Shown here: in pieces, positions 10,690 through 55,266 of the stretch
Layout of the letters: each line of letters begins with the position of its first letter
Numbering within the stretch: the stretch's first letter is position 1
Assembly (NCBI GenBank): GCA_964016885.1
Contig: OZ024743.1
Location: 64,232,001-64,296,000 of the forward strand
DNA: 64,000 nucleotides
Reading direction: 5' to 3'
From: Eledone cirrhosa
Taxonomy: Eukaryota
Program-made: the position numbers and the translations under genes
Notes under the pieces: model-generated
Databases searched by the model: none
What the model was told of the DNA's origin: nothing
What the model saw: only the letters and a program-made list of their open reading frames with translations

Positions 10690-10779
10690 TCCTCGACTAC
10701 GTAGTTTCGTGGCATAAACAAAAACAATACATCATAAAGATATAGAGTCCTTGCGAGGTCTGCCGACTTATCAAGAGGA
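10690..10779 (-). ncRNA. Type-I hammerhead ribozyme, U3-A8 variant, extended stem II
   Basis: minus: TCCTC-TTGATAA-GT(C)GGCA...TGCCAC-GAAAC-TACGTA-GTC-GAGGA; 5-bp stem I, palindromic loop III, GUC site; sits in a ~210-bp unit between TA tracts. Confidence 0.75.
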
Positions 10780-11029
10780 TACCTCATTTTACTAGCTTCA
10801 AGAACGCGTCTACACGACGTGAGAAAGAATCCCATATATATATATATATATATATATATATATATATATATATATATATATATATATATATATATATATA
10901 TATATATATATATATATATATATATATAAATGTACGTATTGTGTTTATTTGAAAACATCTTGAAGGCCTTTCGCTATGAATTTAAGGTAGCGACTATAGT
11001 CACATACATACCTTCACCAAAAACAAAGG

Positions 11030-11670
11030 GAAGTAACCGCCGATTAATCGTTTCTCACTGTTTAGTGGATATCAAGGGTATATATCACCTCTGTTTTTGC
11101 TGTGAGTTGTATAGAAGCCTGATTCTTAAAGAATACCAATTATGTTTATGAGCTGTTTAAACTCATTAACATACAGAGCGGTTTCCGGCCCAGCAACAAT
11201 TAGAAATTTGTGCTGGTGCTACACATCAGCCCAATATAGAATAGCAAAGACTGAATCCAAAAATCTTGTTAAATCAGACAAACTTAAGCAAATGTACAAC
11301 AACATTGAGGAGCTGAATAACCTACCACCCAACAGGTTATATCATGCTGTTCTGAAGAAACTAAAGACTAAACCAAGAAATCTTAGCTGGGGCATTAAAA
11401 ATTCAAACGATACTATTCTTACTTCCAAAGATAATATCCTTTAACGCTGGGCTAAATTCTATAAAGAACTGCACTTCAGCAACTTAGAACTAACAACCAT
11501 TCATGATTCGACATCAGATGTTATTCCATCTATCTTAACTAGCGAGATATATCATGCCATCAAAAGTTTGAAGTGAGGAAAAAGCCCTGGACTGGACAAC
11601 ATATACTCAGAATTCATCAAATCTGGAGGTAAACCAATTATCAAAGCACTTCAACACCTTTTTAACCAAA
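11030..11670 (+). mobile_element. Degenerate LINE fragment (linker between endonuclease and RT)
   Basis: 'EIYHAIKSLK*GKSPGLDNIYSEFIK' motif with stops. Confidence 0.65.
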
Positions 11671-11867
11671 CTGGGTGGGAGATCCCCCCCCCCCCACCCC
11701 AACAGACAGGGAGAGTGGACAGGTATGTTATTGTAACACCAACAACACTACCACTCCAACGTGTCAAATGGCAGAATGAACAAGAATTCAAGAATTGTGT
11801 AAGTAATTGTGAGTGTATGTACCTTGCTAAAGATTATTCAGTGGTGGTTTGTATTTTTGTATAAAAT

Positions 11868-11969
11868 GAAGGTGTCCCAAAAAATGTATACACACTCTGA
11901 TTACCTGTACAGGCAATATTTATTAGAATGCTGTTGAAGGGTATATATATTTTGGGGGGACACCCTGTA
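11868..11969. mobile_element. Tiny Tc1/mariner-like MITE
   Basis: inverted ends GGTGTCCCAAAAAATGTATAC / GTATATATATTTTGGGGGACACCCTGTA. Confidence 0.45.
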
Positions 11970-51776: not shown

Positions 51777-52135
51777 TTTCTTTATTTGCCACAAGGGCGC
51801 ACAAGAAAAGGGGACAATACAAAGACATATGGCGGGGATTTTACATACAGTCGTGTAAAAAAAGCTTTAACATTAAAATATAACAATCGAAATCCCCAAT
51901 AGGGGGGAGGCGTTACAAATGGGTTGCTTTATACCCCCGTAGATAGAACAACTCTCCACTCCAGGAGCATGTTGTGCAAGTGCCCCTTTCTTCCTTTTGT
52001 TCTCTTCTGCAACCTACAGGTTTATATACAAAGAAGGCCCAATAACTCGGGCCATTTTTGCCACATTCACCCACCTTTCAGTAAATTTACTGGGGTGCAG
52101 TACCTCTCTCTCCACTCTGATTCTCCTTCTAAAGT
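51777..52135 (-). mobile_element. Tx1/L1-clade 3' fragment between (GATA)n tracts
   Basis: 3' UTR and ORF2 end homologous to 56716-57070; bounded by GATA/GGTA repeats. Confidence 0.8.
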
Positions 52136-52159
52136 GGCAGATAGATAGATAGATAGATA

Positions 52160-53960
52160 TGTTTCTTTATTAGCCACAGGGGCACAAAAGAAGGGGACAA
52201 ATACAAAGGGGGAAGTTTACATACAATAAAAACGTGTAAAATGTTATCACAAATGCAATTTAAAAAGTTAGTCGATTTTCCCCAATAGGGGGAGACAGTT
52301 CATATGGGTAACACATACCCCCGAAAAAATGTGAAACCCTCATCTCCAGGAGTACGAAGAGTTTGTACTCCTTTCCTCTCCTCCTCCTTTTCCTCAACCT
52401 ACAGGCTGATATAGAGAGATGGCCCATTCACTCGGGCCATTTTCGCCACTTTCACCCACCTTTCATAAAACTTGCTGGGGCACAGCACCTTTCTCTCCAT
52501 CCTGATTCTTCTTCCAAAGTGGTATTTGAAAAAAAGAATCAGTTGTTGGCCGGAGAGAAAGGTGTCTGACCTCAGCCCTTTCAACCTTGTCCACCATACA
52601 ACCTCTTTCGCCATAGCCATCACACAAAGGAAAACCGCCTCTCCTTCGTTTTTGAAGGAGGGTGGCGGTTTGATCATGACAATGGACTCGGTGGTCAACC
52701 GGATTGGTCCCACCCGCGACAATAGTCGTTCTACATAGCCCCACAGGTCGGTAACGCCCGGGAAGTGTATGAATGCGTGCGCGACGGTTTCTTCGTCTCG
52801 TACGCACCTCGGACAGATCTTTTTTGCAAGGTGCCTGCCCGGGCGCCCATGTCTGTAGAGCTTGTCTCGAACTGGTGGAGCTCCTCGGTAGCACAGCCAG
52901 GCCAGGGACTTTTGGAAGTTGTCCATCGGTCTCGGGCGGAAGGTCCTACCGAACAGACTGGCCAGTTCATCTTCCTCTACGCCCAGAGTTTCAACGAGCA
53001 CGTCGTCGCACTTGCTGCGGATCAACCCTCTATAGAATGACGAAGTGGAGTCTCCACTGATCGCCGGGTCCGTTTGCCAGATGACTGTGAGCGCCTGAGC
53101 ACATTTGATGTGCCAGTCGCCCATTTTCCTCGGTCTTTGCTTGACCCAGAACTGTAGCTCGGTCAGCGAGACGAGTCGTGGGAAGGCTCGCCTCACGAAC
53201 GGGTCCCACACCGGTTGTCCGGTGAGGAATACGTAGAGATGCCGCAGCCTGAGCGCGTGTTTGCGCATCGTCAGCCACGGCATCCCCAGCCCTCCGTTGG
53301 AAGGGCGTTGGCAGCAGATGGATCTTCTCACCAAAGGAGCCTGCCTCTTCCAAAGGAATTGGAAGAGCGTGCGCTCCATTTTGGCGAGCGTTTTGGCTGG
53401 ACAAGGTACGACGGTCAAGCGGTAGTAGATGGTGGACGCTATAAAAGTGTTCGCCACCTCCGTTCGACCTTTCAAGGATAGTTTGCACTCGGCCCACTTC
53501 TGGGTGAGTGTAAACACCTTGGCCGACACCTCGTTCCAGTTCTTCTCCACCTGGAGGTTCGGACCAAACCAGACCCCGAGCAGCTTTACTGGTCCTTCCG
53601 TCCAGCGTCCAACGACGCCATCGGAAGGCATCGGTTTGCCTCTCCACGATCCGAGTTGCAAACCGATAGACTTGTCCCGGTTCAGCTTCGCTCCTGTGAA
53701 CCTTTCGTATTCGTTCAGTAAGGTGCCGACTTCCTCGATTTGCGAGGCGCTCGACACCATTACTGTAAAGTCGTCGGCGTGGGCCGACGCCGCTTTCTGC
53801 AGTTCCGGTTCCAGAGGGATGCCCTGCAATAGCTCCAACTTCCGCAGTAGTGGCTCGAGAGTTAATACGTACAGAAGGGAGGAGAGAGGGCATCCCTGTC
53901 GAATGGATCGCGTGATATGGAACGGCTCCGAGAGGTAGCCGTTCACCTTAACCCTTGAGC
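52160..53960 (-). mobile_element. Tx1/L1-clade LINE, 5'-truncated, inserted in (GATA)n
   Basis: open ORF2 with RQGCPLS, HADD, LLGVWF, GGLGMP, CPRC...ETVAHAF; GATA runs at 52140-52159 and 53961-54016. Confidence 0.92.
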
Positions 53961-55177
53961 AGATAGATAGATAGATAGATAGATAGATAGATAGATAGAT
54001 AGATAGATAGATAGATAGAGAAGGTATGTGTATGAAACGAGAAGCTCGCCCCTTCAACACCGTCCAGGAATCTCTGAAATAACCCATCCCCAACAATTGT
54101 CTGTTATCCAGAAATCCAGGTTAAGGAGTGGGAGTTCTTGGAAGATGGACCATCAAAGGAAACCCCCTGTCCCTTACACAAGCAGACAAATACAAACACA
54201 AACTCTCTCTCTCTCTTTAGCTCTCTCTCTACCTCTCTCTCTCCCACTACCCCCTCTCTCTCCCTACCTCTTTACCTCTCTCTTTCTCTCACACATAAAC
54301 TCTCTTTCGTTTTCTTGCCACTTCTCTATCTCTGCCTCTCTCTTTCTCTCTCACATACAAACTCTTTCTCTTTCTCCCTCTCCTCTTTCTTTCGTACAAA
54401 CATACTTTTACTCTCTCTGTCTTCCTCTCACACACAAATTCTCTCTCTCTCTCTCTCTCTCTCTCTCTCTCTCTCTCTCTCTCTCTCTCTCTCTCTCTCT
54501 CTTTCTCTCTCTCTCTCTGTTTCTCATACACGCATACGCACTCACGCACTCACACACACACACACATACAAATACAAATTCTCTCTCTCTCTCTGAAACA
54601 CACACACAATGTATCGCGCTCTTTCTCTCTCTCTCTCTCTCTCTATCTTTCTCTCACTCTCTCTCTCACATGTACCTCCACCAACACCACTACCACCACC
54701 AAAGTGTTCTATTTAACTTTCCAGACACTGTTGTTTGGAAAGGAAACTCCATCAACGCCCTCACAACAATAACAGCAACAACTACACCAAGAACACGCAC
54801 ACACACGCATACACACACACACTCAACTACATACTCCAATATACAACAAAGTCTGCATGTATGTTTGTGTGTGTATATAGTATTTAGTTTAGTATGTTTG
54901 TGTAGTAAACTGTATGTGTATTTGTTCCCTTTCCCTCTCCAAACATTTGTCTTAGATATCCACACACACACATACACACACACGCACACACACATATATA
55001 TATATATAACGTGTGTTTCTTATTGGCAACATGACTCTCCCAAAGTATAACAATATCGGTTTCAACACACGATTTCAGATAAAGAATCTTGCTAAACAAA
55101 TTCAGAAACGAAATATAACATATTATAAAGTAAGAAGAAATAGTAGATACAGATATATACCTATTTTTTCTTGAATG

Positions 55178-55266
55178 TCCCGACTACAGTTTCGCTGGTC
55201 AGTATGCAAAAATCTTACATCATAGAGATGCAACATTGTTGTGAGGTAAGCCAGCTTTTCAAGGGA
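55178..55266 (-). ncRNA. U3-A8 hammerhead with extended stem II
   Basis: minus: TCCC-TTGAAAA-GCTGG...CCAGC-GAAAC-tgta-GTC-GGGA; loop II shares ACATCATA.AGAT with the 10690 ribozyme. Confidence 0.75.

Follow-up and report, generated by a model that had tools for sequence, protein, structure and literature searches.

In a window of 64,000 nucleotides from the genome of Eledone cirrhosa (assembly GCA_964016885.1, contig OZ024743.1, positions 64,232,001 to 64,296,000, the whole stretch being called the window below), four hammerhead ribozyme motifs, here M1 to M4, carry a U3-A8 pair in place of the canonical C3-G8 pair of the catalytic core. These motifs are genuine hammerhead folds at the 3′ ends of abundant Penelope-type repeats. 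It is fairly probable that they are the hammerhead termini of mobile repeats of Penelope type, the families of which carry a compensated U3-A8 pair that likely preserves self-cleavage, mainly as dimers. Both the U3-A8 variant and its association with Penelope elements have been published before (Perreault et al., 2011, PMC3088659; Cervera and de la Pena, 2014, PMC4209133), and what is new is modest: the presence of the variant in an element of the Hydra clade, and repeated switching to it within one genome.

Hammerhead folds of the window

An earlier note on this DNA had listed four UUGANAA motifs, and direct reading together with descriptor parsing bore out the position of each (Table 1). The descriptor, tuned after the motifs had been seen, describes a type I hammerhead in which positions 3 and 8 are left free. 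It matched the window eight times, with five U-A cores (M1, M2, M4, and M3 on both strands), three C-G cores and no mismatched core; 60 dinucleotide shuffles, made in blocks of 500 nt, yielded about 0.17 matches each in total and 0.02 with U-A, figures that serve only as a guide given the late tuning. All four motifs have the core Y3 U4 G5 A6 N7 R8 A9...G12 A13 A14 with A15.1-U16.1, H17 and a paired 3-8 position, and all have three helices open at helix I, with a stem I of 4-9 bp, a stem II of at least 4 bp and a stem III of 2-4 bp as a monomer. Motif parsing gave M1 a stem I of 5 bp and one bulge in stem II, and M2 two stems I and II of 4 bp each. In alignments, the helices of the M1 to M4 types covary between relatives.

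The paired stems I and II and the NUH cleavage site that the earlier note had described are present in M1 to M4, except that stem II of M3 opens with a C10.1-A11.1 mismatch that had gone unmentioned, whereas M1, M2 and M4 have G10.1-C11.1. This deviation is common to M3 and its C3-G8 sister family (see below), and deviations of a similar kind occur in published rows of Hydra elements. M3 also has a mirror hammerhead on the opposite strand, absent from the earlier list, because its site is a 170-bp palindrome. The window copy of M4 has a private loss of 2 nt in stem III, a stem that is palindromic in its family. An Rfam search of the window at E<=1 left M1 to M4 unlisted and returned only a pair of canonical hammerheads (19032-19103 and 19571-19642; HH9, 38.9 bits, gathering score 52).

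Fixation of U3-A8 within families

Families were counted in the 3.0-Gb assembly with exact anchors that allowed any base at positions 3 and 8, the first 100 matches being listed for each anchor. Since the anchors include family-specific flanks, diverged relatives escape them, and the copies of a family are not independent events. The M1 family counts 5,913 exact anchors (99 U-A and 1 U-G among the 100 listed), the M2 family 437 (99 U-A and 1 U-G among 100 listed) and the M3 family 584 (98 U-A, 1 U-G and 1 U-U among 100 listed), and all 40 anchors of the M4 family are U-A. Not one C3-G8 core is found among the listed rows of these four families. The M1 family is young: of 50 copies aligned from its best-scoring loci, 35 are identical across 144 columns.

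A C3-G8 family with 3,880 anchors served as a control for decay. Among 100 listed copies, 89 are C-G, 5 U-G, 4 C-A, 1 A-G and 1 U-A, which makes C-to-T and G-to-A common decay changes (5 and 4 per 100, respectively). Independent decay would be expected to yield about eight U-A double mutants in this family genome-wide; two exact U-A copies were found, with a slightly different pattern. A single U3-A8 copy thus proves nothing, because decay can yield U-A within a C-G family. Indeed, one U-A locus (L187) set against a C-G locus (L280) as a candidate compensatory subfamily was rejected, the two exact U-A copies and 1 of 100 listed among 3,880 standing against the eight or so expected from decay. 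In M1 to M4, U3-A8 is fixed family by family and is therefore not the result of copy decay. The view of the earlier note that the double change reflects covariation rather than decay is upheld by these counts. A CUGANGA family consensus with U3 and A8 arising as unlinked mutations, the outcome that would have spoken for decay, was looked for in the anchor rows, where the consensus proved to be U3-A8.

Elements carrying the U3-A8 hammerheads

By its sequence features, the M3 family is assigned to the Hydra clade of Penelope-like elements (PLEs). At one locus (L288), a pseudo-long terminal repeat (pLTR), a decayed open reading frame (ORF), a 3′ untranslated region (UTR), a second pLTR and (TA)n follow one another, and M3 occurs in both pLTRs on the same strand, at 2102 and 6533, that is 4.43 kb apart. 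Four other loci (L099, L108, L107 and L296) have more than 1 kb of upstream homology in common, ending at the C-terminus of the endonuclease, and the hammerhead lies about 1.25 kb 3′ of the endonuclease stop. The element thus has the Hydra-clade layout of a single ORF, with reverse transcriptase and C-terminal GIY-YIG endonuclease, between hammerhead-bearing pLTRs. Its protein contains RMRWR, DKT and YRDD, a CNCRNRSIC linker (CxCX5C), CRLC or CMLC (CxxC), and CNH (CxH). A Pfam search of the Penelope ORF fragments gave zero matches, and the assignment of M3 therefore rests on the motifs described for the Hydra clade of endonuclease-positive (EN+) PLEs with a C-terminal endonuclease (Craig et al., 2021, PMC8557442). 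Like that clade, M3 has an RW-type motif, DKT, CxCX5C, CxxC and CxH around conserved E and N, a C-terminal GIY-YIG and a (TA)n target, and, like many rows of File S2 of that paper, it has a 3′ hammerhead with a 10.1-11.1 mismatch and a non-GUC site. Unlike the Hydra rows of File S2, of which 26/26 are CUGANGA, the core of M3 is UUGAAAA, and unlike Hydra elements, generally <3 kb, the M3 element spans about 4.4 kb from one pLTR to the other and has a 3′ UTR of 1.25 kb (PMC8557442). In view of those 26 rows, U3-A8 in a Hydra element adds a little to what is known.

The other three families are non-coding. M1 forms head-to-tail tandems with a unit of 591-595 nt, a period of 591 and a GC content of 43%, including a five-unit array (L295), and M2 forms head-to-tail tandems with a period of about 320 nt (L292). 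Both are thus non-coding tandems with one type I hammerhead per unit, as expected of retrozymes. In this respect, and in low GC, they resemble metazoan non-LTR retrozymes, for which an origin from Penelope elements has been suggested (Cervera and de la Pena, 2020, PMC7229834; Li et al., bioRxiv 10.64898/2026.07.22.740005). The M2 unit lies within the 150-450 bp range of retrozymes and the M1 unit above it, the core here is U3-A8 and, unlike in retrozymes, circular RNA of M1 and M2 is only predicted (PMC7229834; bioRxiv 10.64898/2026.07.22.740005). M4 loci include inverted and rearranged copies. M1 and M4 align over 291 nt at 66% identity (E 8e-24); being homologous, they reduce the four motifs to three lineages. 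The dissimilar flanks that the earlier note had seen among all four hence hold for M1/M4 against M2 against M3, among which mutual comparison gave no match at E<=1e-4, and do not hold for M1 against M4; likewise, the same double change is found in three lineages rather than in four separate elements.

In 18 of 35 M3 copies, (TA)5+ lies exactly 53 nt past the cut site, against a background of 17% within 150 nt; (TA)n is found 72-83 nt past the cut site in 18 of 31 M1 copies and 56-64 nt past it in 17 of 28 M4 copies, and the distance is looser in M2 (117-140 nt in 15 of 30), the background being the same throughout. Inverted, 5′-truncated partner copies are frequent in the M1 to M4 families, an arrangement described for Penelope insertions. 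As a separate observation, many M3-family copies (L091-L120) are 5′-truncated within about 15 nt of the 5′ strand of stem I, a pattern to which the design of the query may have contributed; reverse transcription perhaps halts at this point.

Candidate full-length M2 and M4 elements (L287, L292 and L293) contain zero Penelope ORFs of at least 130 aa. Hydra ORFs at L121, L123, L122 and L124 were considered as partners of M1, M2 and M4 and rejected, as relatives of these ORFs are followed, about 1.2-1.4 kb downstream, by C3-G8 hammerheads of their own. Because these ORF families bear hammerheads of their own, the adjacency of M1, M2 and M4 to them is attributed to nested insertion.

Probable repeated switching between sister families

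The 331 motifs scoring >=20, from all loci examined at that stage, fell into 40 clusters, of which 30 have a C-G majority (the decay family and one two-copy U-G/C-G cluster included) and 8 a U-A majority, two mismatched singletons being left out. Two of the three U3-A8 lineages have C3-G8 relatives. M3 is 67% identical over 173 nt to F37, with identity around stem III and covariation in stem I as well; F37 has 3,578 anchors, and among the 100 listed 94 are C-G and 0 U-A. M3 and F37 are also sisters (support 89/84) among C-G Hydra families in an endonuclease tree of 39 fragments, all from this genome, which was midpoint-rooted for drawing and in which the U-A labels of L064/L122/L125 and L090/L124 were discounted as nested. 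M2 is 73% identical over 158 nt to F33, a C3-G8 relative seen in two copies, with U10.1-U11.1 and a GUU site. Covariation among the U-A relatives of M2 affects stems II and III.

At least three origins of U3-A8 are likely, because M2 and M3 each have a C3-G8 relative and M1/M4, M2 and M3 lack mutual matches. Further U3-A8 families, F13, F34, F28 and F31, were seen at L014, L040, L197, L207, L274, L206 and L223, and counting F13/F34, F28 and F31 the number of origins would rise to up to about six. F31 lies 582 nt past a Hydra endonuclease, the tree sister of which has a C3-G8 hammerhead at a similar distance (a single locus); F31 is possibly a second switch within Hydra. The context of the switch differs as well: G10.1-C11.1 occurs in 6/8 U-A families and 5/30 C-G families (Fisher p 0.004), and a GUC site in 5/8 and 4/30, respectively (p 0.01), both comparisons being post hoc, between families that are not independent, and with M3 as an exception. 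We put forward tentatively, as a possibility short of an even chance, that the change from C3-G8 to U3-A8 took place separately in three to six lineages, made up of Hydra-clade elements and the non-coding repeats derived from them, and mostly only in an otherwise optimal context (G10.1-C11.1 and GUC).

Frequency of U3-A8 in the genome

The earlier note had proposed that U3-A8, C3-G8 and mismatched cores be counted genome-wide, and the count was run on an evenly spaced sample of 97 stretches of 10 kb each (0.97 Mb), with three stretches that had been targeted left out. The descriptor found 81 motifs, namely 65 C-G, 9 U-A, 1 U-G, 1 C-A and 5 other; shuffles of the sample gave a mean of 3.8 motifs in total and 0.3 with U-A. 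U3-A8 amounts to 9/74 of the paired cores, or 11-12% (95% interval about 6-22%), one of the nine being a case of decay. U3-A8 is thus a real minority for which the window is enriched, and the abundance that the earlier note had suspected finds no support in this sample. Its expectation that CUGANGA-only searches would miss these families was correct: such descriptors overlook about one in nine intact hammerheads here, roughly 25,000-28,000 by rough scaling of the sample, among them the young M1 family with its 5,913 exact anchors. Intact hammerheads number about 75-80 per Mb of the sample, which scales to the order of 200,000 genome-wide, and many have AUA, GUU or GUA sites.

Proposed mechanism and alternative explanations

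In the mechanism that we favor, a transcript spanning two units would allow the palindromic stems III to pair between copies, the 3-8 pair would form within the active site, and a cut 3′ of N17 would free a unit-length RNA, possibly circularized. A Penelope reverse transcriptase-endonuclease, encoded by the element itself in the case of M3 and acting in trans on M1, M2 and M4, would then copy this RNA into TA microsatellites. The U3-A8 swap would have arisen in master lineages and been retained since the unpaired 3-8 state likely spreads poorly. Computed folding is consistent with action as dimers, the intermolecular stem III duplex of M1 to M3 reaching -10.0 to -20.1 kcal/mol against +2.4 to -1.8 for the monomer hairpin, with a probability of the monomer hammerhead fold <=0.03; the duplex of the M4 window copy reaches only -4.2 kcal/mol. 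The M1 circle folds at -174 kcal/mol, against -141 +/- 7 for 30 mononucleotide shuffles, a weak hint of circular RNA.

The copies in the window, which the earlier note took to be probably functional ribozymes, are probably inert passengers, because all are 5′-truncated and without a same-strand partner hammerhead of their own family. In addition, RNA through both arms of the perfect palindrome at M3 would likely fold into one long hairpin, and M4 has lost 2 nt of its family stem III.

Several points weigh against the favored mechanism. Both halves of the U3-A8 swap match the frequent decay changes C-to-T and G-to-A; only lineages count as events, since the copies of one family are not independent; and the node joining M3 and F37 has only moderate support. 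An autonomous partner of M1, M2 or M4 was not found, no coding sequence being shared upstream in 30 loci of each, a survey that rare autonomous copies could escape. Self-cleavage and expression of the M1 to M4 families are predictions. Minimal PLE hammerheads have low activity in vitro even as dimers (PMC4209133), and for an anole Penelope element cleavage was unnecessary for transposition in vitro and no RNA-seq reads ended at the cut site (PMC11167929).

These two published results also favor a different explanation, in which the fold persists because it serves something other than cleavage (binding of proteins or folding of the reverse transcription template), or cleavage is slow and dispensable, and U3-A8 marks a conserved fold. 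The tolerance of many families in the clustering for AUA, GUU or GUA sites and for 10.1-11.1 mismatches, and the spread of Naiad elements without canonical hammerheads, are in line with it. We regard it as unlikely, as stem III is palindromic throughout the families and compensation falls at the 3-8 position, given as a base pair by Perreault et al. (PMC3088659). Compensation at this position points at catalysis because the pair belongs to the active conformation. Martick and Scott reportedly described it as part of that conformation in 2006.

AT-biased drift acting on master copies with hammerheads that had already become dispensable, with U3-A8 hitch-hiking to high copy number, would exploit two frequent transitions, and the double mutants expected in the 3,880-anchor C3-G8 family do exist. 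Such drift, however, predicts many families fixed for only one change, and zero multi-copy families have a mismatched majority (one two-copy cluster is split U-G/C-G); in U-A families the stems and the other core positions show conservation or covariation, and M1 and M4 have both kept U-A despite their divergence. Drift is accordingly very improbable. A single switch ancestral to all U3-A8 hammerheads of the genome, with the C3-G8 sisters as reversions or recombinants, fares little better and is in our estimate quite improbable. U3-A8 is common by descent to M1 and M4, and to F13 and F34, and short motifs carry little phylogenetic signal in a tree rooted for drawing only; yet M2 and M3 are each far closer to a C3-G8 family than to each other or to M1/M4 (no mutual match at E<=1e-4), M3 falls among C-G Hydra families, and the 26 published Hydra rows are all C-G.

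Relation to known U3-A8 hammerheads

The covariation of C3-G8 to U3-A8 is reported in several natural hammerheads by Perreault et al. (PMC3088659), who cite in vitro activity of U3-A8 hammerheads (their ref. 32, Przybilski and Hammann, 2007). Whereas the natural core variants there are scattered examples, the present genome holds copies by the thousand, spread over several families and accompanied by C3-G8 sister families. Any novelty of U3-A8 in Penelope-element hammerheads is forestalled by the Cercyon PLEs of Schistosoma mansoni, with about 1,300 U3-A8 matches and about 2,000 canonical ones (PMC4209133). The motifs described here resemble Cercyon hammerheads in being type I, in pLTRs and U3-A8, in occurring mostly as solo copies and opposite-strand pairs, and in the palindromic 15.2-16.2 region with predicted action as dimers. 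They differ in a longer stem III (8-12-nt palindromes), stem II loops of up to 60-105 nt, a U3-A8 share of about 11-12% of cores, and the presence of U3-A8 in a Hydra-clade element and in tandem non-coding units. The loop 1-loop 2 contact is often poorly defined in PLE hammerheads (PMC4209133). In the literature searched, in which subscription papers and supplements were thinly covered, only PMC4209133 and PMC3088659 were found to report the U3-A8 variant, and no report of it in Hydra elements or cephalopods was found.

Other features of the window

Besides the U3-A8 motifs, the window contains canonical hammerheads that serve for comparison (Table 1). A young C3-G8 hammerhead repeat, nested and inverted, occupies 18754-19850 and has 354-nt arms that are 100% complementary; a decayed relative of it (66%) adjoins M2 at 16241-16450. 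The end of an endonuclease from another Hydra-type family lies at 46509-47246 (-), its relatives having a C3-G8 hammerhead about 1.4 kb downstream. M4 lies between the pieces of a fragmented long interspersed nuclear element (52399-61330, -) that matches Exo_endo_phos, RVT_1 and, weakly, zf-RVT. At least 12 copies of a repeat resembling short interspersed nuclear elements, with a tRNA-like GTTCAAATCC box, occur between 5487 and 40907, and minisatellites are found at 23446-24388 (32-nt units) and 38112-38714 (33-nt units), the latter between inverted (GGT)n/(CCA)n tracts. Outside the window, an uninterrupted frame of 1,219 aa with Penelope-like reverse transcriptase and GIY-YIG motifs and a Neptune-like zinc finger is inserted into an M3 element (L266:5293-8949, +); the descriptor found no hammerhead in its 3′ repeat, and Pfam gave no match.

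Table 1. Hammerheads and hammerhead-bearing repeats of the window (window coordinates).
Feature	Position	Strand	Description
M1 hammerhead, type I	10779-10690	-	UUGAUAA core; U3 10774; GUC, C17 10695; stem III palindrome 10 nt
M2 minimal hammerhead, type I	16669-16625	-	UUGAUAA core; U3 16665; GUC, C17 16629; stem III palindrome 12 nt
M3 hammerhead, type I	41915-42050	+	UUGAAAA core; U3 41920; GUA, A17 42045; long stem II
M3 mirror hammerhead	41916-41775	-	U3-A8; motif parsing and inverted-repeat listing
M4 hammerhead, type I	55266-55178	-	UUGAAAA core; U3 55262; GUC, C17 55182
M1 repeat piece	10594-10834	-	5′-truncated 3′ end of 591-595-nt unit; 241 nt, 98% identical, (TA)n on both sides
M2 repeat piece	16607-16722 joined to inverted piece 16722-16869	-, then +	Truncated, from ~320-nt tandem unit
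M3 site	41655-42102	both	Two 5′-truncated pLTR ends head-to-head (palindrome); assigned to Hydra-clade PLE
M4 non-coding repeat	55113-55428, with more rearranged pieces up to 55781	-	M1 homologue; strand given for 55113-55428
Canonical C3-G8 hammerhead (comparison)	19582-19626; inverted copy 19048-19092	+; -	Another repeat family
Canonical C3-G8 hammerhead (comparison)	40305-40364	-	Type occurring downstream of another Hydra family

Significance

Cutting by Penelope hammerheads in vivo is under question, minimal forms being slow in vitro and one element having transposed in vitro without cleavage. A repeated, compensated 3-8 change between sister families is comparative evidence for selection on the active fold. 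The sister families also supply matched natural pairs for assays, with further value in the possible dependence of the switch on context. If the tentative reading of independent, context-limited flips is true, these flips would make visible both epistasis and selection on cleavage itself in Penelope replication, and the genome of E. cirrhosa would amount to nature's own replicated experiment on the active site of the hammerhead, in which the pairs M3/F37 and M2/F33 would allow direct testing.

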